Part shown: positions 17,506 to 62,661 of the stretch, piece after piece
How the letters are laid out: every line of letters begins with the position of its first letter
Position numbering within the stretch: the first letter of the stretch is position 1
Source: Thermodesulfobacteriota bacterium
Lineage (GTDB): Bacteria > Desulfobacterota > Desulfobulbia > Desulfobulbales > SURF-16
Assembly: GCA_040755455.1 (NCBI GenBank)
Contig: JBFMAY010000001.1
Location: 135,896-199,895 of the forward strand
Direction of reading: 5' to 3'
Length of the DNA stretch: 64,000 nt
The notes under the pieces: generated by a model
Database searches by the model: none
What the model was told of the DNA's origin: nothing
The model's input: the letters and a program-made list of their open reading frames with translations, nothing else
Program-made: the position numbers and the translations under genes

Positions 17506-22113
<4,608 letters not shown>

Positions 22114-22230
22114 CAGGCAGCGGGAACACAAGAGAGAATCCGTGGCCGGTGGAGGAGCTGCCTAAGCGCGGCCCTCTTCCCGGAGGGGCTTTGCCGGCCA
22201 GGGCATGTTAAACCAAGCAGGGGAGACACC

Positions 22231-22857
22231 ATGCGTATCCTGATCGCTGAAGACGACTTGACGTCGCGGGTCATGCTGGCGGCTGTGTTAAAGAAAGGTG
22301 GCCATGAGGTGGTGGAGACCACCAACGGCACGCAGGCCTGGGAGGCGCTGGGCAAACCCGATGCGCCGCGCCTGGCCATTCTCGACTGGATGATGCCCGG
22401 CCTGGACGGGCTTGATGTCGTGCGCCGAATCCGCTCCCTGCCCTCCCTGCCGCCACCGTACATCATCATCCTGACCGCCAGGGAGGGGAAAACCGATGTC
22501 ATCGCCGGTCTTGAAGCCGGGGCGGACGACTATCTGGCCAAACCCTTTGATCCGGGAGAACTCCTGGCCAGGGTTGCGGTCGGCCGGCGCATGATCCAGC
22601 TGCAGGAAAGATTGACGGACCAGGTGCGGGAACTGCGCGAGGCCGCCCGCCACATCAAAACCCTGCAGGGCATCATCCCTATCTGTTCGTTCTGCAAGAA
22701 GATCCGTGACGACCAGGGTTACTGGGACCAGGTCGAGGCCTATGTCAGCCGGCATTCCGAGGTCCAGTTCAGTCACGGCGTCTGTCCCGAGTGCCTGAAA
22801 AAAAACTACCCCGATTGCTGTGAGGACGACGGTGACGGCGAGGGCGAGCTGGTATGA
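22231..22857 (+). CDS. Response regulator: REC plus a C-terminal Cys/His-rich module
   Basis: REC 'RILIAEDDLTSR...ILDWMMPGLDG...KPF'. C-terminal 'ICSFCKKIRDDQGYWDQVEAYVSRHSEVQFSHGVCPECL'. SD GGGGAGA lies upstream. Confidence 0.9.
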   Translation: MRILIAEDDLTSRVMLAAVLKKGGHEVVETTNGTQAWEALGKPDAPRLAILDWMMPGLDGLDVVRRIRSLPSLPPPYIIILTAREGKTDVIAGLEAGADDYLAKPFDPGELLARVAVGRRMIQLQERLTDQVRELREAARHIKTLQGIIPICSFCKKIRDDQGYWDQVEAYVSRHSEVQFSHGVCPECLKKNYPDCCEDDGDGEGELV

Positions 22858-25800
22858 TGAATAACACCACATCCACCAGACCGGCGGCCAGGGCCGTGGT
22901 GGTCAATGACGACGTGAACCAGCTTAATGTGCTGTCCGGCCTGTTGCGCAGGGAAGGGATCGAGGTGCAACCATGGCAAAGCGCGGAGGCGGCCCTTGCC
23001 GCCATGGACCGGCACCGGCCACCTGATCTCATCGTCACCGACCTCTACATGCCGGTGATTGACGGCTGGCGCTTCTGCCGTCTGCTCCGTTCGCCTGAAT
23101 ACCCATCCTGCAACCACATCCCCATCCTGGTCATTTCAGCCACCTTTGCCGGCGACGAGGCCGCCCGCATCACCAGGGAGCTTGGCGCCAACGCCTTTCT
23201 GCCGGCACCGGTGGACGGCAAACAGTTCATTGAACAGGTGCGGGCGATTCTCGCCGGCCGGTTGTTGCGTCATATCCCCCGGGTGCTGCTTGTTGAGAAC
23301 AGTCCCACCCTGGCGGGCCTCCTGCAGAAGGCCTTTGAGAGCCACGGCTACCTGGCCGATACGGCCAGCACCGCCCGGACGGCGGCCGCAGCGTTCGCCT
23401 GCGCCGCTTACGACGTGGCCGTGCTGGACTATCACCTGCCCGATGCGACGGGGGATTTGCTGCTCGCGGATTTCCGGGCCGGGCGGCCTGATTGCGTCTG
23501 CATCATGATGACCACCGACCCGAGCCCCGAGCTGGCCCTGGCCTGGATGCGGCAGGGCGCGGCCGCCTATCTGCGCAAGCCCTTTGACCCTGCGTCCCTC
23601 ATCGAACTCTGCGCCATGGCCTGCCGGGAAAGAGCCCTGCTGCGGGTGGAAGATCTGCTGGAAAAAAGAAGCCGCGAACTGCGGGAGGCCGAATGCCGCT
23701 ATCGCACTCTCTTTGAGCAAAGTCCAGACGGGGTGGTGATTCTTCATCCGGGAACCGCCCAGCCGCTTGAATTCAACGAACAGGCCTGCCGGCAGCTCGG
23801 CTATTCCCGGGAAGAGTTCGCCCGCCTGCGCCTGTCGGACATCGAGGCGGCGGAAACGGCTGAAGAAAGTCAGGTCCGTATTGCCAACGTCATTCGCGAG
23901 GGGCACGACGATTTCGATACCCTGCAGCGCACCAAACAGGGAGAGATCAGGCACGTCCACGTGACGGCCCAGCTGATTGATGTGGGGGGGCGGCCGGTCT
24001 ACCACTGCATCTGGCGGGACATCACCGAGCGCAAACGGGCGGCGGAAATGCTGCGGGAAAGCGAGACGCAGGTTCGGGCCAAGCTCGACGCCATCCTGTC
24101 CCCGGCGGGAGATATCGGTCTGCTCGATCTGCGCGACATCCTGGATGTCCGGGCGATCCAGGAGCTGATGAACGATTTTTTCAGTCTGACCCATATCGGC
24201 GTCGGCATTATCGATCTGCACGGCAAGGTGGTGGTTGCCACCGGATGGCAGGATATCTGCACCAGATTCCACCGCCGCCACCCTGAAACCTGCCGGAACT
24301 GTATGGAAAGCGACACGGAGCTGTCCGCCGGGGTGCCGGCCGGAACCTTCAAGATCTATAAATGCCGGAACAACATGTGGGATATCGCCACCCCGGTCAT
24401 GGTGGGCGGCAGGCACATGGGCAACCTGTTCCTCGGCCAGTTCTTCTTTGCCGAGGATACCCCGGATCGTGACACCTTCGTGGCCCAGGCAAGGCAATAC
24501 GGGTTCGCTGAGGATGAGTATTTGGCCGCCCTGGAGCGCGTGCCGCGCTGGAGCCGGGAAACCGTCAACACCATCATGAGCTTCTATGCCCGCTTCACCA
24601 CCCTGCTTTCCACCCTGAGCTATAGCAACATCAAGCTGGCCCGGACAGTGGAAGAGCGTAGGGAAGCCGAGGAGGCGCTCAGGCAGAGCGAGGCCCGGCT
24701 GGCGGAATCCAATCAGCTCATGGCCGGGGTGCTGGATCATACCCACATGATGGTGGCATACCTTGACGCGCGGTTCAACTTCATCTGGGTCAATCGCGCC
24801 TATGCCCAAACCTGCGGGCAGGAGCCCGGCTTTTTTCCGGGCAAGAACCACTTCGCCCTCTATCCCCACGAGGAGAATCAGGCCATCTTTCAGCGCGTGG
24901 CGGATACCGGTGAACCGTTTTTCGTCGCCGCCAAACCGTTTGAGTTTCCCGATCAGCCCGAGCGCGGCGTGACCTACTGGGACTGGAGTCTGGTTCCCAC
25001 CAGGGATTCAGCGGGGAAGATCACGGGACTGGTTTTCACCCTGGCCGAGGTCACCAGCCGCATCCGGGCCGAGGAGACCCTCAGGCGGAGCGAGGAACTC
25101 CTGAATGCCACCCAGCGGCTGACCAAGGTGGGCGGCTGGGAGTGGGATCTGGAAAAACAGACCATGTTCTGGACCGAGGAGGTTTACCGCATCCATGGCC
25201 TGAATCCTGGCTGCGTCGCGCCGGGCGCGGCCGAACACGTGGCCAGGAGTCTGGAGTGTTACGATCCCGGGGATCGGCCGGTCATCCTGTCCGCCTTTCA
25301 GCGCTGCGCCGAGGAAGGGCAGGCATACGACCTGGAGTTCCCTTTTACGCCCTGCAGCGGAGGCAGGATCTGGATCCGGACCGGGGCCGAGGCCGTAATG
25401 GAGGCAGGTAAAGTGGTGCGGATAGTCGGCAACATCATGGACATCACCGAGCGCAGGCTGGCCGAGGAGACGCTGCGCAACAGTGAAGAGCGTTACCGTC
25501 TGCTCTTTGCGGCCATGGACTCGGCCTTCGCTCTGCACGAGATCCTGCGTGACGCAAACGGTTCGCCCTGCAACTACCGTTTCCTGGAAGTCAATCCTGC
25601 CTTTGAGAGGTTGACCGGGCTCAAGGCCGGGGAACTGATCGGCAAAACGGTTCTCGATGTCCTGCCGGAAACCGAACATCTCTGGGTTGAGCGTTACGGT
25701 CATGTGGTTGACAGCGGCGAGACCATCCATTTTGAGAATTACAGCCGGAATCTGAGCCGGCATTATGCGGTCACCGCTTACCGTCCCCGGCCAGGGCAGT

Positions 25801-27392
25801 TTGCCGTGATCTTTATGGACATCACCGAGCGGAAGAGGGCCGAGACGGAACGGGAACGGCTGCTCATGGCCATCGAGCAGTCCGGCGAGGTCATCGTCAT
25901 CACCGACCCTGATGGCATCATCCAGTATGTCAATCCGGCCTTTGAGCGGGCAACGGGCTACAGCCGTGACGAAGTCCTGGGCCAGAACCTGCGCCTGTTG
26001 AAGAGCGGCCGACAGGAGGAGGCCTTTTATGAGGAAATGTGGCGGGTGATCTCCGGAGGCGGGAACTGGCGGGGACGTTTCGTCAATAAACGCAAGGACG
26101 GCACGCTTTTTACCGAGGAGGCCAGCATCTCGCCGGTGCGGGACACCCAAGGCCGGATCGTCAATTACGTGGCGGTCAAGCGCGATATCACGGAGCATCT
26201 GCGCATTTCCGAAGAGAATGCCAAGCTGGAGGCCCAGTTTCAGCAGGCCCAGAAGCTTGAGTCCGTCGGCCGTCTGGCCGGCGGCGTGGCCCATGATCTC
26301 AACAACCTGCTCACCCCGATTCTCGGTTACGCAGAGATGCTGCTGGATGATTTCAGCGAGGAAGACGGGCGCAGGGTGGACATGGCAGAGATCGTCAAGG
26401 CGGGCATGCGGGCCCGGGATCTGGTGCGCCAGCTCCTGGTTCTCAGTCGCAAGCAGGTGATGGAGTTGAAATCCATCGATGTCAACAACCTGCTGACCCA
26501 GTTTGACAAGCTGCTGCGCCGCACGATCCGCGAGGATGTCGCCATTGATCTCATTCTGGCCCCGTCGCTGCCGCTCATCAAGGGTGATATCGGGCAGCTG
26601 GAGCAGGTGATCATGAATCTGGCGGTCAACGCCCAGGACGCCATGCCAGACGGTGGCAGGCTGACCATGGAAACGGAGATGGTCGCGGTGGATGAGGTCT
26701 ATGCCGCGGGGAAACCCGGCATGCTCCCCGGCCCTTACGTCAGGTTGACCATCAGCGACACGGGCTGCGGCATGGACGCCGAGACCTGCAGGCACATCTT
26801 CGAGCCGTTTTTCACCACCAAGGAAAAGGACCAGGGTACCGGACTGGGCCTGGCCACCGTCTACGGCATTGTCAAGCAGCACGGCGGCAGTATCTGGGTC
26901 TACAGCGAACCCGGCCACGGCTCAACCTTCAAGATATATTTTCCTGTTGCCGAGGCCCAGGCTGCGGCGGAGGAAGTCGTTGCGGCAAAACCCGCAGACA
27001 GGGATGGCTCCGAAACCATTCTGCTGGTGGAGGACAATGAGCAGGTGCGCAATCTCGCCCGGGCCATTCTCAGCCGGCGGGGCTACTCGCTCCTCATCGC
27101 CCAGGACGGCAGCGATGCGCTGCGCATCCTCGCCCGGCACCATGGGCCGCTGCACCTGATACTGACCGACGTGATCATGCCCGGCATGAGCGGCAAGGAG
27201 CTTTTTGACCGGGTTGCCGCTCTTTACTCTGATATGAAGGTGCTTTACATGTCGGGCTATACCGATAATGTCATTGCCCAGCGCGGCGTGCTTGACCAGG
27301 GCATTCACTTCATCCAGAAACCTTTCACCGTCACGGGCCTGCTGGCCAAGGTGCGGGAAGCGCTGGATCAGGCTTCCCGCAGCGCCAGCTGA
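22854..27392 (+). CDS. Multidomain sensor kinase (REC x2, multiple PAS, PocR-like domain, HisKA, HATPase, C-terminal REC)
   Basis: The start overlaps the upstream stop (ATGA). Two N-terminal REC domains ('LIVTDLYMPVIDG', 'VAVLDYHLPDATG'). H-box 'GGVAHDLNNLLTPILGY'; HATPase 'DTGCGM' and 'GTGLGLATVYGIV'; C-terminal REC 'ILLVEDNEQVR...LILTDVIMPGMSG'. Confidence 0.92.
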   Translation: MMNNTTSTRPAARAVVVNDDVNQLNVLSGLLRREGIEVQPWQSAEAALAAMDRHRPPDLIVTDLYMPVIDGWRFCRLLRSPEYPSCNHIPILVISATFAGDEAARITRELGANAFLPAPVDGKQFIEQVRAILAGRLLRHIPRVLLVENSPTLAGLLQKAFESHGYLADTASTARTAAAAFACAAYDVAVLDYHLPDATGDLLLADFRAGRPDCVCIMMTTDPSPELALAWMRQGAAAYLRKPFDPASLIELCAMACRERALLRVEDLLEKRSRELREAECRYRTLFEQSPDGVVILHPGTAQPLEFNEQACRQLGYSREEFARLRLSDIEAAETAEESQVRIANVIREGHDDFDTLQRTKQGEIRHVHVTAQLIDVGGRPVYHCIWRDITERKRAAEMLRESETQVRAKLDAILSPAGDIGLLDLRDILDVRAIQELMNDFFSLTHIGVGIIDLHGKVVVATGWQDICTRFHRRHPETCRNCMESDTELSAGVPAGTFKIYKCRNNMWDIATPVMVGGRHMGNLFLGQFFFAEDTPDRDTFVAQARQYGFAEDEYLAALERVPRWSRETVNTIMSFYARFTTLLSTLSYSNIKLARTVEERREAEEALRQSEARLAESNQLMAGVLDHTHMMVAYLDARFNFIWVNRAYAQTCGQEPGFFPGKNHFALYPHEENQAIFQRVADTGEPFFVAAKPFEFPDQPERGVTYWDWSLVPTRDSAGKITGLVFTLAEVTSRIRAEETLRRSEELLNATQRLTKVGGWEWDLEKQTMFWTEEVYRIHGLNPGCVAPGAAEHVARSLECYDPGDRPVILSAFQRCAEEGQAYDLEFPFTPCSGGRIWIRTGAEAVMEAGKVVRIVGNIMDITERRLAEETLRNSEERYRLLFAAMDSAFALHEILRDANGSPCNYRFLEVNPAFERLTGLKAGELIGKTVLDVLPETEHLWVERYGHVVDSGETIHFENYSRNLSRHYAVTAYRPRPGQFAVIFMDITERKRAETERERLLMAIEQSGEVIVITDPDGIIQYVNPAFERATGYSRDEVLGQNLRLLKSGRQEEAFYEEMWRVISGGGNWRGRFVNKRKDGTLFTEEASISPVRDTQGRIVNYVAVKRDITEHLRISEENAKLEAQFQQAQKLESVGRLAGGVAHDLNNLLTPILGYAEMLLDDFSEEDGRRVDMAEIVKAGMRARDLVRQLLVLSRKQVMELKSIDVNNLLTQFDKLLRRTIREDVAIDLILAPSLPLIKGDIGQLEQVIMNLAVNAQDAMPDGGRLTMETEMVAVDEVYAAGKPGMLPGPYVRLTISDTGCGMDAETCRHIFEPFFTTKEKDQGTGLGLATVYGIVKQHGGSIWVYSEPGHGSTFKIYFPVAEAQAAAEEVVAAKPADRDGSETILLVEDNEQVRNLARAILSRRGYSLLIAQDGSDALRILARHHGPLHLILTDVIMPGMSGKELFDRVAALYSDMKVLYMSGYTDNVIAQRGVLDQGIHFIQKPFTVTGLLAKVREALDQASRSAS

Positions 27393-31933: not shown

Positions 31934-32090
31934 TTGTCCTTTGTCGAATCGTTATCAGTCCGGCCTAACTTTCTGCCGATCATTGACGGGAGGTTGGGCA
32001 TTTTTTTTATGATCTTCCAGTAAACCAGAGATTTGCATTATTTCACCATCAACGTTGTCATTTTCTTTGCTTAAAAAAACAGGAGCCGGC

Positions 32091-34541
32091 ATGGCACGAC
32101 GGGAAGCTGCCCAGAACATCTTTGTCAGGTTCGACAGGCTGCGGGACAGCCTGAAGCAGATTATTTTCGATCAGGACAAGGCCATTGACGAGGTGGTGGA
32201 TGCCTTCATTCATACGGCCTACAAACCGGTTGCCGCACCGCCCAAGGCGATTTTTACCTTCCTGGGCCCTCCCTCGGTGGGCAAGAAGAGTCTTGCCCGG
32301 GCCCTGACCTCACATCTGGAGGAATATGCGGCTTTCAAGCAGTTTGATATGGAGCAGTTCGCCGATCCTGAGAGCGGGGCCCAGCTGTTTAGCCAGCGGT
32401 TGACCGCTGACGGGGTGCAGGAGGGGGAGTTGGCGGGGTTTATCAGGGAGCACCCGCAGTCCATTATTCTCTTTGATTCCATTGAAAAAGCGGACAATCA
32501 ACTGCAATTGGCCCTGTTCAATCTGCTCACCCGCAACGAGGAGGAGAGCGGCATCAACTGCAGCGGCGTTATCGTGATATTCACCTCCAGCCTCGGCTGC
32601 AGTTTTTTCAAGGATAGAAAGTACCAGGAGGCTTTCAAGGAAAACAAGCTGCGCGCCCAGGCCCTGGTCATGGATGCCCTTTCCAAGGAAAAAAAGGCGG
32701 TCTACGATACGGTGCAGAGCGCCATTGCCCCCAAGCTGCTGGCCGCCATGGCGCGCAATTTCATCATCCTGTTCAATTCCCTGAGCCTGGATACCCTGGT
32801 GCGCATCGGGGGTGAATCCTTGCGCTGTCATTCAGAGCAGTTTGCCCAGCTCAGCAAAATGAAAGTGGAATATCATAATTTTGACCGGATCGCCACCCTG
32901 CTGACCCTGTCATTTTCCCCCAATATCAGCGTTACGAGGCTGAAACAGAAACTGCCCGATCTCTTTCTCGGCAGGATCACGCGATTTGTTCGGGACCAGA
33001 GGAAGTATCCCCAGCATATCGTCTGCAGGCTTTCCAGGCAGGCCGATGCTTTCCTGGAGAAGATATGCCAGGACAAAGAGACATTGCTGGCGCGGCTTTA
33101 CAAGAAAAACGAAACAGTGGATATCACCTGGAAAGAGACCCTGAGCGGTCAGAAACTGACCTGCGCCATCCACAAAGCGGAACTCAAAAGGCTGCCGCCG
33201 GCCAGTGATTTTTTCCGTGAACTGCTGCCGGGGGTGGAATTTTCCACCCTGGGCTTTAAGGATATAGCCGGCAATAAGAGCACCAAGAAGAATCTTAAAC
33301 AGATTGTCAAAATTCTCCGCGAGCCTGAACTGCTGAAAAAATTCAACATCGACATGCCCAAAGGCATGCTGCTTTATGGACCTTCCGGAGTGGGCAAGAC
33401 CATGCTGGCCAAGGCCTTTGCCCGGGAAACGGAAAGGCCGTTTGTCTATGTGTCCAGAAGCGATCTGTTTGATCCCGTCTATATCAGGAACGCCTATCTC
33501 AAGGCCAGGGAGTTTGCCCCGAGCATCGTCTTTCTTGACGGCATTGACGTCAAAGGCCTGATGGAGGGGGTCTATACCTCCATGCCGGATGACCAGCTGA
33601 CCCTGGAGCTGGACGCCCTGTCCGGGGACCCAGAGGATTCCGTTTTCACCATCGCCACCGCCCAGATCAAGGCCGATGTCAGTCCCCGGGTCATTGCCCC
33701 CAACAGAATCGATATCTTTGTCGAGGTGCCCGAGCTTGACCGGGACGCCAGGCGCTTTTTCATCGAAAAGATTCTGGAGAAACCCAACGACGGCAAAATC
33801 AACGTGGAGCGGGTGATCCGCTATATCTCAGGCATGAGCGGCTATGATCTGCAGCGCATCGGCAAAGAGGCGTCCCTCTATGCCATCCGCAATGATCTGG
33901 ACCGCATCACCGAAGATATCCTCATCGAGGAGATCAATATCATCAAGTATGGCTATAAGCTGGAGAAGAAGCGCATCAGAAATCTTGAGCAGGATCTGAA
34001 AATCACCGCCTACCACGAGGCCGGCCACGCGGTGCTGTCGCATCTGCTGCTGCCGGATATCAAGATTGAGCAGGTGACCATCGCGCCGCGGCTCAAATCC
34101 ATGGGATTCATCTCCTACAGCATGGAGGATTTTCCCGGCAACATCTCCAGGGATGAGGTCTTTGACAACATCTGCGTGCTGCTTGGCGGGCGCACGGCCA
34201 GCATCAGGAAATTCGGCAGCAAGGGGATCGACACCGGCGCGGCAAACGACCTGGAGGTCGCCACCCATCAGGCCTATGCCGCGGTCGCCAGTCTGGGCAT
34301 GGATGAGGAGATCGGCTATGTGCACACCGATACCCTTTCCCAGAATGTCAGCAAGCAGATGTTTCTCACCAAGGTTGAGACGCGGGTCAGCCATTGGATG
34401 CGCGAGGCGAGCGCCAAGGCGGAGACGCTGGTGGAAAAGCACTGGGATAAGGTGGAGCAGCTGGCCTCGATCCTCATCCGTCAGGAAATTGTCGACGGCG
34501 TCGAACTGGAAAAGATCATGAAGGGGCTCAAGGACTCCTAG
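32091..34541 (+). CDS. Soluble FtsH-like protein: Clp/Hsp100 D2-like AAA module + FtsH-type AAA module + M41 peptidase domain
   Basis: AGGAG lies 6 nt before ATG 32091. N-terminal module: 'FLGPPSVGKKSLARAL', 'IILFDSIEKA'. FtsH-like module: 'LLYGPSGVGKTMLAKAFARE', 'IVFLDGID'. M41 motifs: 'AYHEAGHAV', 'LLGGR', 'TGAANDLEVAT'. I saw no hydrophobic TM segment. Confidence 0.85.
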   Translation: MARREAAQNIFVRFDRLRDSLKQIIFDQDKAIDEVVDAFIHTAYKPVAAPPKAIFTFLGPPSVGKKSLARALTSHLEEYAAFKQFDMEQFADPESGAQLFSQRLTADGVQEGELAGFIREHPQSIILFDSIEKADNQLQLALFNLLTRNEEESGINCSGVIVIFTSSLGCSFFKDRKYQEAFKENKLRAQALVMDALSKEKKAVYDTVQSAIAPKLLAAMARNFIILFNSLSLDTLVRIGGESLRCHSEQFAQLSKMKVEYHNFDRIATLLTLSFSPNISVTRLKQKLPDLFLGRITRFVRDQRKYPQHIVCRLSRQADAFLEKICQDKETLLARLYKKNETVDITWKETLSGQKLTCAIHKAELKRLPPASDFFRELLPGVEFSTLGFKDIAGNKSTKKNLKQIVKILREPELLKKFNIDMPKGMLLYGPSGVGKTMLAKAFARETERPFVYVSRSDLFDPVYIRNAYLKAREFAPSIVFLDGIDVKGLMEGVYTSMPDDQLTLELDALSGDPEDSVFTIATAQIKADVSPRVIAPNRIDIFVEVPELDRDARRFFIEKILEKPNDGKINVERVIRYISGMSGYDLQRIGKEASLYAIRNDLDRITEDILIEEINIIKYGYKLEKKRIRNLEQDLKITAYHEAGHAVLSHLLLPDIKIEQVTIAPRLKSMGFISYSMEDFPGNISRDEVFDNICVLLGGRTASIRKFGSKGIDTGAANDLEVATHQAYAAVASLGMDEEIGYVHTDTLSQNVSKQMFLTKVETRVSHWMREASAKAETLVEKHWDKVEQLASILIRQEIVDGVELEKIMKGLKDS

Positions 34542-38928: not shown

Positions 38929-41292
38929 CTACATGGAGCTGATCTGCAGATCGATCAGGTCATCCATTCTGTCCAGGTAAATATCCAGGGGCTGCTGCCT
39001 GAGGGCGGCGAGTCCGACCCGGAGATCCAGGGCCTGGATATCATGGGCGAGAGAGGGCGAGCCGACTATCTTCTCCGCCTCGTCATAGCGGTTCAGCTTG
39101 ATCAAGGCCTTGGCGCAATTGATGGCCGCTTCCGCGCTGCTGCCGGCAATGGGGTTAAGGATCTCGTATGCCTTTTCAGGCCAGCTGTTGGCCAGCAGTA
39201 TCCGGCCCGTATGTTCCATGGTGGAGTCGTTCCGGGGCAGCAGGTCAAGCAGGGGCTCCGCCTGGTGCCGAAAGCCGAGTTTCAGGTAGAAATTCAATAG
39301 GCTGAGGAAGTCGGTCATTTCTCCCATGAGTTTCTGCGGCAGGGAGTCCTTGAGCACCATGTAATAGAGATTTTCGTTCTGTTTGCGCAGACCGTCCAGA
39401 TCATTGAAGCGATAGATGTTCTGCGGCGGGTTATCCGGCAGACCATCCATATGGTCAATGATGACGGGCTCCATCACCTGATGGAGAAAAACCTGGAACA
39501 TGAGGGTCCGGCCGGCGAGTTCACTGCGGCCGTAATCAGCCGGGAAGCTTACCGGAAACTGGCTGACCCTGCCTCCCTTCATGCCCTGCAGACCGGCCTC
39601 GAAATCAGGGAGGAGTTTGCCGCTGCCCAGCACGGCATCCTGGTAATAGGCCTCGGTGGCCGGCACAACCTGGCCGTCCAGAATACCCTTGCAGTCGTAT
39701 ATAACCTTGCAGCCGTGGGCTGCGGTGCCGCGGCGTTTGCAGCGAAAGCCGGTAAACGGTCCGGCCAGGAAGCTTGTTACCTCCGGATCATGGGGAAATT
39801 GAGCCTTGAGCCGGGTCATGCATTGATGGGCGGCATGAAATTCCTCCAGGCACAGATAAATCTGCGTCAGCATGATGAGGGCCTCGGGCCGGCAGGAAAG
39901 GGCCGCGAAGTTTGCGGTGATGAAGCCCGCCACCTCGAAAAGGTTGCTGCCGGTGGCAACGTTTTCCTGGAAATCCTGACGATTCAGGCGCCACAGCATG
40001 CTCATTCGCCGGATTTCCTCCTCGCTCATGGCGTCGGTGGCGAAATCGCGGCATATGCTCAGGTAAGCTGGTTTGGTCACGGCCAGCGGTTTGATGCCAT
40101 GGGCCTCATGGTCGTCAAGGATGGGGATGCCGAAGAAGAGGTGCAGCTGCTGGGAAATGGAATTGCCGCTGACGGGCACCCTGTTGGCCTTGACAAAATC
40201 CAGGGTTTTCTGGGCATGGGCAAATGACTCCCCTGGCAGGCCGAAGAGGGTGAAGAGTTCAACGTTGATGCCGGCCTGCTGGACTTTGCCGATGACCCCG
40301 GCGAGTTTTTCCGGGTTGAGTCCCTTATTGATTCTGGTCAGCACCTCGTGGTCGGCTGATTCGAGTCCGAAGGCAATGGTGTGGGCCCCCGCTTTTTTGA
40401 GCAGCTCGAGCAGCTCGTCATCAATGAGATTGTATCTGGTCTGGCACCAGAAGGTGATGGCCGGGCATTGGGTAATGATGCTGCGCAGCAGCTCAACAAG
40501 CCGCCCGCGGGAAAAGGCGAAGTTGGGATCGGCAAACCAGAAGTCGCGGATGCCCCTGGCCTGCAGATGTTTGATTTCGGCCGTGACCCGGCCGATGGAA
40601 TGAAACCGTACCTTTTTATTGCTGGCGCGGGTGGTGTAACAGAAGGTGCAGGGCGAGGTGCAGCCCCGGGAGGTGAGGAGAATAACCCGGCTCTTGCCGG
40701 CCGTGTCGATGATCCCTTCCAGGTAGGGGGAGGGCAGGCTGTCAAGGTCCTCCACCACCTCCGCCGGTGGGGTGTCAACCGCCTTTCCCTGATCCAGGTA
40801 GCAGATGCCCGGCACCTCGGCAAGGGGCCTGCCCTTGTCCAGGGCCCGGCCAAGGGCAGGCAGTACTCCTTCACCTTCCCCCCGGCACAGGATGTCCACG
40901 TTCTTCATCTGGAGCAGGGCCGCGCCGGGCATGAAGGTGATCTGGGGGCCACCCAGGATTACCAGAATTTCCGGGCGGAGCCTTTTGGCATAACTGGCCC
41001 AGACCAGCACCCTGTTGATGTTTTCGTCATAAACCGAAAAACCGAGCACATCCGGTTTTTCGGCGGCAAGCATATCGCGGAAAAGTTTCGGCGGCAGAGG
41101 TCTGTCCTTGTAATCGCCGAGAATGGTGCCGCTGTAGCCGTGCTTCCTGAGGGCGGCCAGAGCGTAGGCCTGGGAGATGGGAATGGTATCCGGGGAGTCG
41201 ATGGTGGCCCATTCATTGACATGTATGAAGAGAAAGTTTGTCCTGTCTGCCTGTCGGTTTTGCTTCATGACGTGGCTGCTCCTGCTCATCAT
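38929..41292 (-). CDS. B12-binding radical SAM protein fused to an FKBP-like PPIase segment and a TPR-like tail
   Basis: The N-terminal part is B12-binding-like ('DVLGFSVYDEN...VILGGPQITF'). The radical SAM cluster is 'RGCTSPCTFCYT' (CxxxCxxC). The FKBP/trigger-factor-like part is 'LGSGKLLPDFEAGLQGMKGGRVSQFPVSFPADYG...FQVFLHQV'. The start could be ATG 41268, which has AGGAG upstream. Confidence 0.85.
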   Translation of the reverse strand: MMSRSSHVMKQNRQADRTNFLFIHVNEWATIDSPDTIPISQAYALAALRKHGYSGTILGDYKDRPLPPKLFRDMLAAEKPDVLGFSVYDENINRVLVWASYAKRLRPEILVILGGPQITFMPGAALLQMKNVDILCRGEGEGVLPALGRALDKGRPLAEVPGICYLDQGKAVDTPPAEVVEDLDSLPSPYLEGIIDTAGKSRVILLTSRGCTSPCTFCYTTRASNKKVRFHSIGRVTAEIKHLQARGIRDFWFADPNFAFSRGRLVELLRSIITQCPAITFWCQTRYNLIDDELLELLKKAGAHTIAFGLESADHEVLTRINKGLNPEKLAGVIGKVQQAGINVELFTLFGLPGESFAHAQKTLDFVKANRVPVSGNSISQQLHLFFGIPILDDHEAHGIKPLAVTKPAYLSICRDFATDAMSEEEIRRMSMLWRLNRQDFQENVATGSNLFEVAGFITANFAALSCRPEALIMLTQIYLCLEEFHAAHQCMTRLKAQFPHDPEVTSFLAGPFTGFRCKRRGTAAHGCKVIYDCKGILDGQVVPATEAYYQDAVLGSGKLLPDFEAGLQGMKGGRVSQFPVSFPADYGRSELAGRTLMFQVFLHQVMEPVIIDHMDGLPDNPPQNIYRFNDLDGLRKQNENLYYMVLKDSLPQKLMGEMTDFLSLLNFYLKLGFRHQAEPLLDLLPRNDSTMEHTGRILLANSWPEKAYEILNPIAGSSAEAAINCAKALIKLNRYDEAEKIVGSPSLAHDIQALDLRVGLAALRQQPLDIYLDRMDDLIDLQISSM

Positions 41293-56328: not shown

Positions 56329-57099
56329 TCACTTTTGCCTTGCCGCCAGGCATTCGAGAATACGGGCGGGGAAATCCGTCACCAGGCCTTTGGCATGGCG
56401 TTCCATGGCCAGTTCGGCGTCCTGTGGCGTATTGATGGTGTACACCCCGGCAAAGATGCCATGGCTGGCGATATCAGCCGCCCGCGCAGGGGTCAGCTGT
56501 CTGAGGGAACAGACAAAGGCCTGGCAGCCGGTGGCCTGCAGCACAAGCGAGGGCAGCCTGTTGTCGCCGGGCGGCAGCAGGGCGGCGGTATGAAATCCCT
56601 GCGGCAGCGAGTTCAGGTACCGCAGGGAGTCATGATGAAAGGAAGAGAAAAGGGTGAATGGTGCCATCTCAGCGGCTGTGGTCGCCGCCGCAATGAGGTT
56701 GATGCGTTTTTGCCAGTCTTCACCCGCGGCCGGCGGTTTGATCTCAACATTGATGCACGCCTTGCCCCTGATCAACTGGAAAACCTCGTCAAGCAGGGGA
56801 ATTTTTTCGCCGCGGAAACGCTCGTCAAACCAGGAGCCGGCATCGAGTTTTTTCAGCTCCGCGGAGGAGCAGCGGTTGATCGCGCCATGGCCGTTGGTGG
56901 TTCTCTCCAGGGTGGCGTCGTGGAAGACGACGATCTGCTCATCGGTTGTGATCTGCACATCGATCTCAAGCATCTGGGCCCCGGCCTCCAGGGCGAGACC
57001 TATGGCGGTTAGGGTGTTTTCCGGCGCCGTGCCGGAGGCGCCGCGATGGGCAACGACAAGATGAGGACTGGAGGTGACGAGATCGTGCAGTGATTTCAT
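56329..57099 (-). CDS. Glycerophosphodiester phosphodiesterase (UgpQ/GlpQ family)
   Basis: 'VVAHRGASGTAPENTL' and 'LEIDVQITTDEQIVVFHDATLERTTNG' are GDPD catalytic motifs. Confidence 0.9.
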   Translation of the reverse strand: MKSLHDLVTSSPHLVVAHRGASGTAPENTLTAIGLALEAGAQMLEIDVQITTDEQIVVFHDATLERTTNGHGAINRCSSAELKKLDAGSWFDERFRGEKIPLLDEVFQLIRGKACINVEIKPPAAGEDWQKRINLIAAATTAAEMAPFTLFSSFHHDSLRYLNSLPQGFHTAALLPPGDNRLPSLVLQATGCQAFVCSLRQLTPARAADIASHGIFAGVYTINTPQDAELAMERHAKGLVTDFPARILECLAARQK

Positions 57100-57224
57100 G
57101 GCGTAAGTTTTTCAATTTGTGGAAGGTTTAATTTTTTGATGCCGTGTGCGGGCGGGCATGACGCACCCATTGCTCGTGCGATACACAGGGCAACCATGCC
57201 CCTGCCGGGGCGCCTGGGTTTGTC

Positions 57225-58079
57225 CTATGAGCCATCAGCCATGTCCCCCCTGCCTTTCCGTCTTTTCACTTCTTTGTCCAGAAAATCCTCCAGGCCCGTT
57301 ACATATCTGCCGGCGGAAAGGAGGAAACCCGCATTGTGGTTGCCGTTGATCGGTAGAAATGTTTTCGGCTCACGGGCCGCGGCAAAGAGGCGGCGGCCGT
57401 GGCTGAAGGGGACGATGTCATCCTCGGTGCTGTGAATGATGAGCAGCGGGCAGCTGATTTTTCTCACCGCCGCCTCGGTGTCGTAATGAAACCGGCAGAG
57501 CAGGCGGCCCGGGAAAAACGGGTACATGTCAGCGGCCATGTCCCTGGCCGACGTAAAGGCGGATTCGACAATACAGGCCCGCGGCTCTCTTGTGCCGCAC
57601 AGCCAGGCGGCTATCGCTCCGCCCAGGGAACGGCCGAACACGATGATCTGCGCCGGTTGGATGTTTTCCTGGGTAACCAGGTAGTCCCAGGCCGCCTCGA
57701 CATCGAGGTAGGTGCCGGCTTCGGAGGGTGTTCCCTCGCTCTGTCCGTACCCCCGGTAATCGAAAATAAAGGTGGAATAACCCAGCCGGTGGAAGATGTC
57801 AATGGTCTCCAGCCGGTGGGAGATGTTGCCGGCATTGCCGTGGCAGAAGAGGATAACTCCTTTGGCCGCCTCGGCCGGAATGAACCAGGCGTGGAGCTTC
57901 ACCTGGTCGGCGGTGGTAAAGGTGACGGACCGGTACGCGAGGTTCAGTTTTTCAGGGGTTGAGAAAAGGGTGCGCTCCGGAAAATAGATGAAGCGGGACT
58001 GGTTGACGAGCAGCGTTGCCCCGAAACAGACATAGATCCCGGCCAGGAGAAGCGCCAGCGACAGTGCGGTCTGTGACAT
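57225..58079 (-). CDS. Alpha/beta hydrolase with an N-terminal membrane anchor
   Basis: Nucleophile elbow 'GRSLGGAIA', 'LFCHGNAGN' and a C-terminal 'DDIVPFSHG'. The gene starts 12 nt after the upstream kinase stop. Confidence 0.85.
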   Translation of the reverse strand: MSQTALSLALLLAGIYVCFGATLLVNQSRFIYFPERTLFSTPEKLNLAYRSVTFTTADQVKLHAWFIPAEAAKGVILFCHGNAGNISHRLETIDIFHRLGYSTFIFDYRGYGQSEGTPSEAGTYLDVEAAWDYLVTQENIQPAQIIVFGRSLGGAIAAWLCGTREPRACIVESAFTSARDMAADMYPFFPGRLLCRFHYDTEAAVRKISCPLLIIHSTEDDIVPFSHGRRLFAAAREPKTFLPINGNHNAGFLLSAGRYVTGLEDFLDKEVKRRKGRGDMADGS

Positions 58080-58091
58080 TTTTTTGCCTGC

Positions 58092-59924
58092 CTATCCCCT
58101 TGGCTCTCCGCTTTTCAGCTTCTGCTGCCAATACTGTTTGATGGACTGTCCCATGCCGCCCACGCTGGCATTGACCGCCTTGCGCAGTTCCTCGTCCATA
58201 TTCAGCGGGGTGAACTTGGCGGTGCCCGATGCCGGCGGCCCGGCGGCGGTGCCGGTTTCCATGTCAACGGCCCGCACGGTGAAGGAAACGGTGGTCAAGG
58301 TCTGCGACCGGCCGTAATACTGCAAAGGCATGGAACCGGTCTGCTGGATCTGGGAGATGAGGACAATATTGGCCGATTGGCTGGGCACCAGTCGTTGGAT
58401 ATCATACCAGGAGATGGGCAGGCTGCCCATCTGCATTTTTTCCATGAGCACCGGGATCTCAGCTACGGAGGTGACATGCAGGCCGCTGTTCGCCAGGGCC
58501 GCCTCGATGTGGTTCTGCACAAAGGGAGCCAGGGTCTCGTCGCCGGAGACAATGGTCAGCACCACAGGGATGGCGGGCAGCGCCGCCTGTTTCTGCACCT
58601 TGGCGGTGCGGGCCGGCGGCGCGGCGGCGGGTGCCGGAGGGGGGGCGATGGCTGGGGCGGTTTCTCTCTCCTGACGGGTGGGTTGTCCCGCCGCGGGCGC
58701 GGTTGCCGGTTCAGGGGCCGGGGTGGTGGCCGGCGGCGTTACCGGGGGTGGCGCCTGGGCGGTTACCGCCGGAGCTTCAGGGGCCGGCGTGGTCACGGTT
58801 GCCGGCAGGGCCGGGGGCTGTTGCCCTGCGTTGCTTTTTTCCTCAACCGTCATTTCCTGCCCGGCAGGCACAACGGTCTGTTCGGCTGTTTTTTCCTTTT
58901 TCACCCGGTGGAGCAGGGCGTCCACCGTCCACATGGACAGCAGGACGGCGATGATGATGCCGGCAGCCATGGCCAGCATCTTGGTGCGTCCGCCCTTTTC
59001 CTTTTCTTCAGGCAGGGGCGGCGGTGGCGGCGGCGCCGAGACGGGCCGGGCCGCCGGGATTCTGCCGGTGATAGGCGGCTCAATATGCAGCTGCCCCATG
59101 CAGGAAACAATGGCATCCATCACCTCTCCCGGTGTCTGGAAGCGCTGGTTGATGTCCTTGGCCGTCATTTTGTCGATCAGCTCACAGACCGGCCTGGGCA
59201 GGGAGGGATTGACCGTGGCGATGGGCCGGCTGGGCTCGGTGATGATTTTCGCCACCACGGCCAGCGGCGATTCGCCGGTAACGGGCGGTTCGCCGGACAA
59301 CATTTTATAGAGGAGCGCCCCCAGGGAATACAGGTCGCTGCGGATATCAAGCTTGGCGCCGCTGGCCTGTTCCGGGGAGGAGTATTCCGGGGTCCCCATG
59401 TACAGCCCGGTCTGGGTGAGTTTGGCATCGGCATCCTGAAAGCAGGCAATGCCGTAATCGGTGATCTTGATCCTGCCCACGGAGTCGATCATGATATTGG
59501 ATGGTTTCAGGTCCCGGTGCACCACGCCCTTGGCCGCCGCCTCCTCAAGGGCGTCGGCGATCTGCAGGGCGATGGGCAGGGCCTCCTCCAGGGGGATGGA
59601 TTTCTTTTCCTTGAGAATCTGGCCAAGGTCCGTGCCCTTGACATATTCCATGGCAAAATAGTAGAGCCCGTTTTCCTCGCCATAGGAGAGGATATTGACG
59701 ATATGCGGATGGGTGAGGGCGGCAACAACCTTGGCCTCTCTTTTGAACCGTTTGATGAATTCCTCATCGCCGGACAGCCTTTCAGAGAGAATTTTCAAGG
59801 CAACCATTCTGTTCAGTGAAAGTTCATGGGCCTTATACACAACACCCATGCCGCCCCTGCCCAGTTCCTTTTCCAGCTGGAATCCGCCAATTATGCTGCC
59901 GGTTTCGATCTGATTGAGCTTCAT
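58092..59924 (-). CDS. Transmembrane Ser/Thr protein kinase with a Pro/Ala-rich linker and a ~180-aa extracytoplasmic C-terminal domain
   Basis: Hanks kinase motifs: 'GRGGMGVVYKA', 'VALK', 'HRDLKPSNIM', 'DYGIA', 'GTPEYSSPEQ'. TM segment 'MLAMAAGIIIAVLLSMW'. Confidence 0.92.
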   Translation of the reverse strand: MKLNQIETGSIIGGFQLEKELGRGGMGVVYKAHELSLNRMVALKILSERLSGDEEFIKRFKREAKVVAALTHPHIVNILSYGEENGLYYFAMEYVKGTDLGQILKEKKSIPLEEALPIALQIADALEEAAAKGVVHRDLKPSNIMIDSVGRIKITDYGIACFQDADAKLTQTGLYMGTPEYSSPEQASGAKLDIRSDLYSLGALLYKMLSGEPPVTGESPLAVVAKIITEPSRPIATVNPSLPRPVCELIDKMTAKDINQRFQTPGEVMDAIVSCMGQLHIEPPITGRIPAARPVSAPPPPPPLPEEKEKGGRTKMLAMAAGIIIAVLLSMWTVDALLHRVKKEKTAEQTVVPAGQEMTVEEKSNAGQQPPALPATVTTPAPEAPAVTAQAPPPVTPPATTPAPEPATAPAAGQPTRQERETAPAIAPPPAPAAAPPARTAKVQKQAALPAIPVVLTIVSGDETLAPFVQNHIEAALANSGLHVTSVAEIPVLMEKMQMGSLPISWYDIQRLVPSQSANIVLISQIQQTGSMPLQYYGRSQTLTTVSFTVRAVDMETGTAAGPPASGTAKFTPLNMDEELRKAVNASVGGMGQSIKQYWQQKLKSGEPRG

Positions 59925-60117
59925 TTGCCGTTCCCTTTAGGTAGAAGATATCCGAACAACCGCATCGCATCAGAAAAAAATTATAACAGAATTTGCTGGT
60001 AAAATCCTTTACAAATGAAGCAAATTAATAGAAAAATAAAGCGAAATGATTTATTAATTCCGAGGTGCTTTTTGGAGTGATGTTTTTTCTTCTTTTATCT
60101 CAGGAGGTGGCCGGATT

Positions 60118-61131
60118 ATGAAAATGCAGCTCAGTTTGGCAGTGTGTCTTGTTTTTCTTGCTTCGATGCTTTCGCTTGCCGGTTGCGTGACTCCCGGCAC
60201 CAATGCCACGGTGACATCCGGACAGGGCGGTCCGGACATAGCCCAGGCCCAGGCCCAGGCCTATAATGGCCCGCAGGCCAGGATCGCCGTGGCCCGCTTC
60301 ACGGACAAGACCGGCAAAGGCTGGTGGACCGGAGGTATCGGCGACGGCATGGCTGATCAGCTGACCACCGCCCTGTTCAACACCAACCGCTATATTGTCT
60401 TGGAGCGCCAGGCCCTTGACGATGTCCTTACCGAACAGGACCTGGGGGCCTCGGGCAGGGTGCGGGCGGACACCGCCGCCGAGATCGGCCAGATTGAGGG
60501 GGCGGAATTGATGGTCGTTGCCGCGGTCACCGAGTTTGAGGGCGCCGCATCCGGGGCCAGCGGCGGACTGGGCGGCGGCGCAGCCGGGGTGATCGGCGGT
60601 CTGTTGGGCGGCTTTCAGAAGGCCCATATGGCCATCGACATGCGCATCATTGATGCGAAAACCTCCCGGGTGCTTGCCGCAACCAGTGTTGAAGGCGAGG
60701 CCACTGATGTCAATCTCGGCGGTCTGCTGGGCGGCTATGGCAGCTCCGGCGCCCTGGTCGGCGGTCTGTCCGGCTGGAAGAACACCCCGACGGAAAAGGC
60801 CCTGAGGATCTGCATCCAGAAGGCCGTGGATTTCATCGTCAGCAAAACCCCGCAGTCCTATTATCATTACGGCGCGCAGCCGGTTGCCGCTCCTGCCCCG
60901 GCCTCATCCTATCAGGCCCCGGCCGGCGCAACATCCGGCGAGGCGGTTATTGTCGTGCCTGAAACCTTGAATGTCCGCAGCGGTCCGGGGGAAAATTTCT
61001 CCGTGGTCTTCTCCGCCCGGGGAGGCGACCGGTTTTCCGTTCTGGAAAAGCAGGACAAGTGGCTCAGGGTCAGAGCCCAGGACGGCCGTGAAGGATGGGC
61101 CGCCGGCTGGCTGACCTCGCCGGTCCGTTAA
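60118..61131 (+). CDS. CsgG-family lipoprotein fused to a C-terminal bacterial SH3 domain
   Basis: AGGAGG SD and lipobox 'MLSLAGC'. CsgG-like 'RIAVARFTDKTGKGWWTGGIGDGMADQLTTALFNTNRYIVLERQALDDVLTEQDL' plus a Gly-rich hairpin region. SH3_3-like 'LNVRSGPGENFSVVFSARGGDRFSVLEKQDKWLRVRAQDGREGW'. Confidence 0.85.
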   Translation: MKMQLSLAVCLVFLASMLSLAGCVTPGTNATVTSGQGGPDIAQAQAQAYNGPQARIAVARFTDKTGKGWWTGGIGDGMADQLTTALFNTNRYIVLERQALDDVLTEQDLGASGRVRADTAAEIGQIEGAELMVVAAVTEFEGAASGASGGLGGGAAGVIGGLLGGFQKAHMAIDMRIIDAKTSRVLAATSVEGEATDVNLGGLLGGYGSSGALVGGLSGWKNTPTEKALRICIQKAVDFIVSKTPQSYYHYGAQPVAAPAPASSYQAPAGATSGEAVIVVPETLNVRSGPGENFSVVFSARGGDRFSVLEKQDKWLRVRAQDGREGWAAGWLTSPVR

Positions 61132-61184
61132 GCAGCCGCGGGTCACAACCTGCGCATGAGCAAAATGAGGGGACTGGAGGTTGC

Positions 61185-62204
61185 CTACCGCCAGATCCCC
61201 TCAATTTTTTCCTTGCAGGCCGGGCAGTGGCCGTCGGCAATGTTGTTCTTTCTGATGCTGAAGCCGAAGCGGGTGATCAACTCCATGCCGCAGGCCGGGC
61301 AATAGGTGTTTTCCCCGCCTTCACCGGGGATATTGCCCTCATAGACAAAACGCAATCCCTCCTCCAGGCCGATCTCCCTGGCCTTGCGCAGGGTGCTTGC
61401 CGGGGTGCGGTCCCGGTCCATCATCTGAAAGGTCGGGTAGAAGGCGGTCACATGCCAGGGCATGGCGGGGTCCACGCTTTTGAGGAAGCGGGCAACCTCG
61501 CGCAGTTCCTGGGAAGAATCGTTCAGGCCCGGGATGATCAGGGTGGTCACCTCCACCCACACCCCCAGTTCGCGCATGAGGCGCACATTGTCCAGCACGG
61601 GCTGCAGCCGCGCCTTGCACACCTTTTTGTAGAAGCTCTCGGTAAAGGCCTTGATGTCGATGTTGATGCCGTCCAGCACCGGAGCCAGGTGCCGGGTGAC
61701 CTCGGCCGACATGTAGCCGTTGCTGACAAAGATGTTCCTGATGTTCCTCTCCCGGGCCAGCACGCAGCAATCATAGGCGAATTCATAGAAGATGGTGGGT
61801 TCCACGTAGGTATAGCTGATGCTTTGGCAGGCCTGCTCCACGGCATTTTCGACGACGTCTTTCGGGCCGGCCGGCTGGCCGATGATCGCTCCTCCCTGCA
61901 TGCGGGGATACTGGGAAATCTGGTAGTTCTGGCAGTGCAGGCAGCGGAAGTTGCAGCCCACCGTGGCGATGGAATAGGAGGTGGAGCCGGGCAGCACATG
62001 GAACATCGGTTTTTTTTCGATGGGGTCAATGTTTTCCGATACCAGTCTGCCATAGATCAGACTGTGCAGGGTGCCCTGCCGGTTTTCCCGTACCCCGCAG
62101 ATCCCCCGTCCGCCTTCCTTGATGTGGCAATGGTGATTGCAGAGATCGCAGATTACCTCGTTTTCCTGGCCGGTGTGATAAAAAAGGGCCTTCTTCATGG
62201 TCAT
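61185..62204 (-). CDS. AmmeMemoRadiSam-system-type radical SAM enzyme
   Basis: 'CDLCNHHCHIKEGGRGICGVRENRQGTLHSLIYG', 'DPIEKKPMFH' and 'GCNFRCLHCQNYQIS' (CxxxCxxC), plus a C-terminal 'CPACG...CPAC'. Confidence 0.85.
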   Translation of the reverse strand: MTMKKALFYHTGQENEVICDLCNHHCHIKEGGRGICGVRENRQGTLHSLIYGRLVSENIDPIEKKPMFHVLPGSTSYSIATVGCNFRCLHCQNYQISQYPRMQGGAIIGQPAGPKDVVENAVEQACQSISYTYVEPTIFYEFAYDCCVLARERNIRNIFVSNGYMSAEVTRHLAPVLDGINIDIKAFTESFYKKVCKARLQPVLDNVRLMRELGVWVEVTTLIIPGLNDSSQELREVARFLKSVDPAMPWHVTAFYPTFQMMDRDRTPASTLRKAREIGLEEGLRFVYEGNIPGEGGENTYCPACGMELITRFGFSIRKNNIADGHCPACKEKIEGIWR

Positions 62205-62211
62205 CTCTCCC

Positions 62212-62661
62212 CTATGGTCTCAGTTTCTTCTCCTGCTCCTGGCCGCGGATTGCCGCTTTGGCAAGCAATGCCAGCTCTTCGGATAGGAGTTCCAGGACGT
62301 CGTCAATGGCCAGGATTCCTTCCAGTGCGCCCTCATCGTTAACCACCGGCAGCCGCCGGATACCCTTGGTCCTCATTTTCTGCAGGGTATCCAGGATGCC
62401 GTCATGCAGTCCGGCGGTGATGAGCCCGTAACTCATGATGTCTCCGGCACAGGCCGCGTCCAGGCTGATCTCCTTGGCCACGAGTTCGACGATGATGTCC
62501 CGGTCGGTGAGAATGCCGACGGGAATGGTCATGCCGCCGCTCCGGTCAACCACCACCAGATCACCCACATGGTACTGGCGCATCAGCTTTGCAGCTTCAA
62601 CAATCGTTGTGTCTCTTTCGGCCACGACAACTTCCCGGTTGCAAAATTCTCCCACAGTCAT
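62212..62661 (-). CDS. CBS-pair domain protein
   Basis: Two CBS motifs: 'HVGDLVVVDRSGGMTIPVGILTDRDI' and 'IRRLPVVNDEGALEGILAIDDV'. The stop is 7 nt before the radical SAM start. Confidence 0.85.
   Translation of the reverse strand: MTVGEFCNREVVVAERDTTIVEAAKLMRQYHVGDLVVVDRSGGMTIPVGILTDRDIIVELVAKEISLDAACAGDIMSYGLITAGLHDGILDTLQKMRTKGIRRLPVVNDEGALEGILAIDDVLELLSEELALLAKAAIRGQEQEKKLRP

Follow-up and report, generated by a model that had tools for sequence, protein, structure and literature searches.

We analyzed a 64,000-nucleotide stretch of contig JBFMAY010000001.1 from a Thermodesulfobacteriota bacterium (assembly GCA_040755455.1, positions 135,896 to 199,895 of the forward strand), hereafter the window, in which a gene for a 610-residue receptor-type Hanks Ser/Thr kinase (58092–59924, minus strand) lies back to back with a gene for a 337-residue lipoprotein of the CsgG/HfaB family with a C-terminal SH3_3 domain (60118–61131, plus strand). 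The two open reading frames (ORFs) are divergent, as an earlier note on this DNA had read them, and lie 193 bp apart. Modeling indicates that the C-terminal ectodomain of the kinase has the α/β core fold of PelC, GNA1162, LptE, PqiC, and the periplasmic part of CsgG, with neither membrane hairpins nor a lipid anchor. It belongs to a new sensor-domain family without a Pfam model, comprising at least 249 sequence clusters, members of which recur next to CsgG-type genes. We consider a functional link of the kinase to CsgG-family lipoproteins plausible, and give a direct link, in which the kinase sensor works with a CsgG-type lipoprotein assembly, about an even chance (a probability near 0.5); for such a link we infer the contact, the signal, and the substrates.

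Kinase architecture and the predicted fold of the ectodomain

Judged from its sequence, the kinase looks active. A Pkinase domain spans residues 15 to 263 (59136–59882; E = 4e-52; 177.5 bits against a Pfam gathering score of 31.7) with its catalytic motifs intact, namely GRGGMG at position 22, VALK at 41, HRDLKPSN at 136, DYG at 156, and SPE at 183. It is followed by a single transmembrane helix at about residues 316 to 338 (58911–58979; Kyte–Doolittle maximum of 2.28 at residue 316), an Ala/Pro/Thr-rich tether of ~114 residues (58569–58910; 24% Ala, 22% Pro, and 12% Thr) that is predicted to be disordered (its modeled part has a predicted local distance difference test score, pLDDT, below 50), and a sensor domain at residues 453 to 606 (58107–58568) that carries no Pfam annotation. 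This architecture places the catalytic domain in the cytoplasm and the C-terminal domain in the periplasm. The combination of a Hanks kinase, one transmembrane helix, and an extracytoplasmic sensor is also that of the PASTA kinases PknB, PrkC, and StkP, and PknB_PASTA_kin is the best NCBIfam match of the catalytic domain; the match, of 320 bits where the cut-off is 450, is confined to that domain, however, and the window kinase lacks PASTA repeats and has a sensor of unrelated fold. Equally generic are the matches that would make the protein a PD-T4-6 or MADS-type anti-phage kinase, a reading that we find scarcely credible. The PADLOC models for PD-T4-6 and mad6 are matched at 1e-73 to 1e-90 and NCBIfam MAD6 at 3e-47, but these alignments cover essentially the catalytic domain, the longest ending near residue 440, within the low-complexity stretch of juxtamembrane and linker sequence, with the ectodomain uncovered; the NCBIfam score is 162 bits against a curated cut-off of 460, no neighboring gene has a PADLOC match, and the protein is built as a membrane receptor.

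The C-terminal ~150 residues of the kinase have no sequence match in Pfam, NCBIfam, or the PDB, phmmer and profile searches against the PDB included. An AlphaFold2 model of the ectodomain built from seven homologues (pLDDT 81; predicted TM score 0.71) has its elements in the order β-α-β-α-α-β-β-β-α-α. With this model as query, Foldseek matched 54 chains of the PDB at E ≤ 1e-3, the 50 listed being without exception from one structural group. GNA1162 (2e-6), PelC (1e-5; TM score of 0.54–0.63 on the target), and the CsgG pre-pore (4uv2; 1.5e-5) are each matched at a probability of 1.0, with TM scores on the query of 0.44–0.51 for GNA1162 and PelC and 0.35–0.40 for CsgG; further matches include HpaA, FlgT, XCC0632, and CT253, these too at a probability of 1.0, the LPHT ring, and CC_3750. 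A paper of 2026 that deals with PA3214 and PqiC names almost the same set of PDB entries as outer-membrane lipoproteins with a common α/β core (PMC13631591). The model of the window lipoprotein matches this set as well, with CsgG first at 3e-10, and the lipoprotein core and the ectodomain have the element order β-α-β-(α,α)-β-β-β-α in common. The earlier note had proposed that the kinase C terminus follows the pattern of the CsgG core. As to fold group and element order, this stands; as to sequence, it does not (see below), and GNA1162 and PelC score better than CsgG, such that the models place the ectodomain nearest to PelC and GNA1162, and not to CsgG. The observation that the kinase domain is devoid of the Gly-rich transmembrane hairpin of CsgG agrees with the model, in which a short β-hairpin, TGSMPLQYYGRSQ, joins the two long strands directly and no Gly-rich insert lies between them. 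PelC and GNA1162 (DUF799) resemble the ectodomain in the models as hairpin-less α/β cores. They differ from it in that they have no detectable sequence similarity to it, and in that the ectodomain is no lipoprotein: it has no lipobox and no outer-membrane anchor, and hangs by its tether from an inner-membrane helix, fused to a cytoplasmic kinase.

On sequence comparison, the ectodomain is not a detectable paralogue of the neighboring lipoprotein, contrary to what had been proposed. BLASTP of the kinase C terminus against the lipoprotein gave a best E value of 0.55, falling in the SH3 region, and hhalign of the ectodomain profiles (104 sequences, and the 45-sequence alignment A2) against the CsgG–SH3 family gave probabilities of 1.2 to 1.4% (P ~0.04); because the comparison of family profiles is not significant, we reject a recent paralogy of the two. 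None of the 45 ectodomain family members matches Pfam CsgG, LpoB, or GNA1162-like at E ≤ 1, and the sole recurring Pfam signal is a subthreshold DUF6175 (5 of the 45; best E = 4e-4), on which our literature searches found nothing relevant. The proposal that the ectodomain is a duplicated CsgG core minus its hairpins, a paralogue that enters a heteromeric ring with the lipoprotein, can call on the common fold group and order of secondary structure, and on the best hhalign alignment itself. Over 104 columns (probability 1.4%; P = 0.037), this weak alignment matches up helix 1 and strands 3 and 4 in the register given by the earlier note and sets the short kinase hairpin TGSMPLQYYGR opposite the first Gly-rich segment of CsgG. 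The scores just given, the better TM scores of GNA1162 and PelC, and an ectodomain family that is old and widespread by itself all speak against this proposal, which we regard as quite improbable.

The extent of that family was established by an exhaustive hidden Markov model (HMM) search over 1.84 billion representatives, which retrieved at least 249 clusters (50% identity) at E ≤ 1e-3, with 29 at E ≤ 1e-30. Among the 59 listed members of at least 450 residues, the HRDxKxxN loop is found in 45, and 5 others are kinases with a truncated N terminus or variant motifs (~85% kinases). The ectodomain is always C-terminal, with two tandem copies in member P0127, and two motifs, G..L.YYGR and T.LN, hardly vary from member to member. 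Four members (P0142, P0152, P0231, which also has PEGA, and P0234) are fusions to a secreted caspase (Peptidase_C14), and the domain is therefore a mobile periplasmic module that is not specific to kinases. Three long members of 615 to 726 residues (P0211, P0226, and P0244) have no Pfam match and no kinase motif; their unassigned N terminus, conserved as MADRPNF(Y/F)ELLG... and reminiscent of the start of a J-domain, may represent a third cytoplasmic output type for the ectodomain. Finally, P0132 (503 residues, secreted) fuses a hairpin-less CsgG/FlgO-like domain (Pfam CsgG 1e-17; FlgO 7e-10) to the ectodomain. Other searches yielded less: a genome scan with alignment A1 gave seven loci, of which the window clade accounts for four, a metagenome scan gave close relatives only, and a homology search with alignment A2, where the word index apparently follows the first sequence, gave only three proteins.

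The CsgG-type lipoprotein and its linkage to kinase genes

The lipoprotein begins with a signal peptide and a lipobox, LAGC (60118–60186), whose Cys23 is invariant in 48 homologues (alignment A4). The CsgG core recognized by the earlier note is confirmed at residues 52 to 246 (60271–60855; Pfam PF03783, E = 2e-42; 145.4 bits against a gathering score of 20.8), with a PDB sequence match to CsgG at E = 6e-6, and the SH3_3 domain lies at residues 283 to 332 (60964–61113; E = 1e-12; pLDDT 85–94). Two Gly-rich segments, residues 143 to 166 (60544–60615) and 198 to 221 (60709–60780), stand where CsgG has its membrane hairpins and have a pLDDT below 50 in the monomer model. This AlphaFold2 model is of low confidence (pLDDT 58), with the order of core elements still readable, and was used solely for that order and for the Foldseek check, which agreed with the sequence-based assignment. 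The fusion to SH3_3, which had been called unusual, turns out to be the common architecture: there are >1499 homologues at E ≤ 1e-10, and among the best 120, CsgG is combined with SH3_3 in 92, PG_binding_1 replaces SH3_3 in 11, an N-terminal SHOCT is added in 10, and CsgG stands alone in 17. Because SH3_3 is swapped for PG_binding_1 among the homologues, the C-terminal module would seem to bind peptidoglycan, and SH3_3 probably ties an outer-membrane ring to it. Weak Pfam LpoB matches also occur on CsgG proteins.

No ORF of at least 90 residues in the 64-kb window matches Curlin_rpt, CsgE, or CsgF, in agreement with the prior statement that curli genes are absent, and the lipoprotein reaches 23 bits with the equivalog model for curli CsgG, whose cut-off is 505. 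The lipoprotein is an ordinary member of the very large non-curli CsgG/HfaB family. It resembles the curli channel of E. coli in belonging to Pfam CsgG and in having CsgG as its top fold match, and the kinase ectodomain resembles that channel in the predicted fold of its periplasmic core. The differences are that the locus lacks csgA, csgB, csgE, and csgF, that the lipoprotein carries the extra SH3_3, and that the ectodomain has no hairpins and no significant profile match.

The kinase gene is kept at 88 to 95% identity in L001–L003, L005, L007–L010, and L014–L019, and close relatives are metagenome-assembled genomes labeled Desulfobulbaceae, Desulfurivibrio, and "delta proteobacterium." Relatives with 87 to 95% identical lipoproteins always retain the divergent pair, which says little because synteny at this level of identity is shallow. 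At greater distance, L011, with an ectodomain 81% identical to that of the window, retains the divergent arrangement with a CsgG gene that lacks SH3. On the P0004 contig (49%), CsgG and SH3 ORFs lie directly downstream on the same strand, followed by PP2C, FHA, and one GNA1162-like/NosD gene, and in L013 and L022 (42–45%, and 70% to each other) a convergent CsgG(+FlgT_C) gene lies immediately downstream. Kinase–CsgG adjacency is thus found in three of ~six well-sampled lineages and in three orientations, i.e., divergent, tandem, and convergent; the linked lineages share 42 to 50% ectodomain identity and are interleaved with unlinked ones. A CsgG HMM run over the ~460 kb of fetched DNA finds every CsgG-like gene directly adjoining a kinase, save in L004 and L006, which had served as baits. 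The recurrent adjacency, together with the P0132 fusion, is more than one would expect by chance; the link is not obligate.

A number of observations weigh against a direct link. L004, with a 76% identical lipoprotein, keeps the flanking histidine kinase, major facilitator superfamily (MFS), radical SAM, and MTHFR genes and has no kinase; the kinase, hydrolase, and GDPD genes (window 56329–59924) are missing there as one block, and a multihaem cytochrome gene lies nearby instead. L006 (71% identical lipoprotein) is also without the kinase. Conversely, no CsgG gene is found within 10 kb of the kinase in L012, the closest outgroup (59%), or within 8 kb in L021 (49%) and L023 (46%). Adjacency is missing, in sum, from three other well-sampled lineages and from two related CsgG–SH3 loci. 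The sample is small, at about six well-sampled lineages, and the distant-branch neighborhoods (P0006, P0130, P0159, and P0158), being on short contigs or at contig ends, are little informative. Profile scans of the window ORFs found no PP2C or FHA gene. Furthermore, the presence of the ectodomain on periplasmic caspases means that it may be a general-purpose binding module, and its nearest neighbor among GNA1162, PelC, HpaA, and CsgG is not separable by Foldseek, the TM scores being moderate throughout (0.35–0.63).

These facts lend themselves to the main alternative explanation, namely that the kinase senses something else (peptidoglycan, an exopolysaccharide, or another periplasmic protein) and that its adjacency to CsgG–SH3 genes is inherited synteny without direct functional meaning. 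The lipoprotein and synteny retained without a kinase in L004, the kinases of L012, L021, and L023, and the caspase fusions all fit this explanation, as do the relative numbers of the two families (>1499 CsgG–SH3-type proteins against ~29 close kinase-ectodomain clusters) and the handling of polysaccharide by PelC-type rings (PMC13631591). Nevertheless, we think it somewhat unlikely, given that adjacency recurs in three orientations among lineages just 42 to 50% identical, that CsgG-like genes occur nowhere else in the flanks, and that P0132 fuses both domain types. It is improbable, in our view, that the ectodomain is mainly a self-association module that clusters kinases for trans-activation with no lipoprotein partner. 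Its relatives do form rings, PelC as a 12-mer, PqiC and PA3214 as 8-mers, and CsgG as a 9-mer (PMC13631591), P0127 carries the domain in tandem, and some of the kinases have no CsgG neighbor, but self-association leaves the recurrent CsgG adjacency and the P0132 fusion unexplained; it is in any case compatible with a direct link and does not exclude it.

Promoter region and neighboring genes

The divergent promoter region between the two genes (59925–60117) contains, in an alignment of six loci, an AT-rich block of ~75 bp (59975–60050) that is almost invariant in five loci and largely retained in L011, where the proteins are ~80% identical. A promoter-like TTTACA-18-AAAAAT (60008–60037, plus strand) lies inside this block, which may be a regulatory site common to the kinase and lipoprotein genes. 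On the other side of the kinase, 12 nucleotides downstream, the ORF at 57225–58079 (minus strand) encodes a membrane-anchored α/β hydrolase by its Pfam match and is probably cotranscribed with the kinase; both genes are present in L001, L005, and L011, and both are missing in L004. A 415-residue ORF (61095–62342, plus strand) overlaps a radical SAM gene on the opposite strand (61185–62204, minus) and is probably a shadow ORF.

In L012, as on the P0004 contig, the relative of the window kinase is clustered with PP2C and FHA genes. At L012:4084–10549, a Hanks kinase that carries the present ectodomain is grouped with a second one whose ectodomain is DUF4384, and with a SHOCT protein, a PP2C phosphatase, and an FHA–EAL fusion, an arrangement that hints at a link of Ser/Thr phosphorylation to cyclic di-GMP turnover.

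Elsewhere, the window abounds in histidine kinases and GGDEF proteins. Two hybrid histidine kinases of 1535 (CHASE) and 1512 residues (PocR sensor) flank a response regulator at 17506–27392 (plus strand), a region of raised G+C content (0.63 against ~0.56). An FtsH-like protein of 828 residues (32055–34541, plus strand) has an atypical architecture in which Peptidase_M41 and AAA are joined by an extra N-terminal AAA_2 domain of Clp/Cdc48 type, and a B12-binding radical SAM enzyme (38929–41292, minus strand) has a prolyl isomerase domain of FKBP type and TPR repeats fused to it.

Candidate mechanism and relation to known systems

Non-curli CsgG/HfaB genes are typically found together with lipoproteins, among them a homologue of GNA1162, in a three-gene cluster that is widespread (bioRxiv 10.1101/2021.05.19.444899), of which NMAA_0892–0894 of Neisseria are an example (PMC5282872). 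Because these usual genomic partners of non-curli CsgG genes include the very protein that the ectodomain resembles in structure, the model that we favor has the tethered domain dock on a CsgG-type assembly. The disordered Pro/Ala/Thr tether would be sufficiently long to bridge the periplasm and could bring the sensor domain to such an assembly at the outer membrane, where it would dock on or under the ring as a look-alike of an accessory lipoprotein; a heteromeric recognition between ectodomain and lipoprotein is what we infer here. Clustering of the sensors, dependent on partner or cargo, might then lead to trans-autophosphorylation of the kinase and to a signal passed to cytoplasmic targets, which in the relatives could include FHA proteins, opposed by PP2C phosphatases. 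A more specific version, which we consider unlikely, has the hairpin-less domain acting as a decoy subunit that docks on or into the periplasmic face of the CsgG-type ring, with the state of assembly or cargo read out as Ser/Thr phosphorylation. If true, such a decoy-subunit sensor would be a design undescribed for any Hanks kinase, and would offer the first regulatory handle on the non-curli CsgG family.

A precedent for signaling from outer-membrane lipoproteins to kinases is found in the H1 type VI secretion system (T6SS) of Pseudomonas, where the lipoprotein TagQ, with TagR, passes an envelope signal to the inner-membrane Hanks kinase PpkA, which controls the T6SS (PMC7817224). The PpkA–PppA–Fha1/TagQRST threonine phosphorylation pathway is similar to that considered here in its inner-membrane Hanks kinase with a periplasmic domain, and the window-kinase relatives likewise lie beside PP2C and FHA genes. 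The periplasmic domain of PpkA is, however, of a different, von Willebrand-like type; the window holds no T6SS genes, nor PP2C or FHA genes, and the candidate partner is of CsgG type. Trans-envelope communication between outer-membrane lipoproteins and inner-membrane partners is also the business of LpoB, RcsF, and NlpE, and LpoB carries a related α/β domain on a long disordered linker. The topology in the window is inverted with respect to these proteins, since the tethered domain of the kinase is anchored in the inner membrane and its output would be Ser/Thr phosphorylation; the tether is akin to the long linkers of LpoA and LpoB, with the direction inverted.

Both receptor Hanks kinases with diverse ectodomains and signaling from outer-membrane lipoproteins to the inner membrane are already known. 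What is new, next to the sensor-domain family itself, is the recruitment of an outer-membrane-lipoprotein core fold, as the models have it, to an inner-membrane kinase, and the repeated association with non-curli CsgG genes, whose family is poorly understood; our literature searches found no description of kinases bearing a CsgG-like domain. Almost nothing is known of the cargo and control of non-curli CsgG/HfaB proteins, for all their very wide distribution (bioRxiv 10.1101/2021.05.19.444899). Most extracytoplasmic sensor domains of Gram-negative Hanks kinases are likewise uncharacterized. In the family described here, a fold hitherto seen on lipoproteins of the outer membrane appears to have been recruited to inner-membrane kinases and periplasmic caspases, and the locus provides a concrete kinase–lipoprotein pair. 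If the interaction proves true, it would constitute a new route of trans-envelope signaling; if not, the ectodomain is still a new kinase sensor domain that can be annotated.

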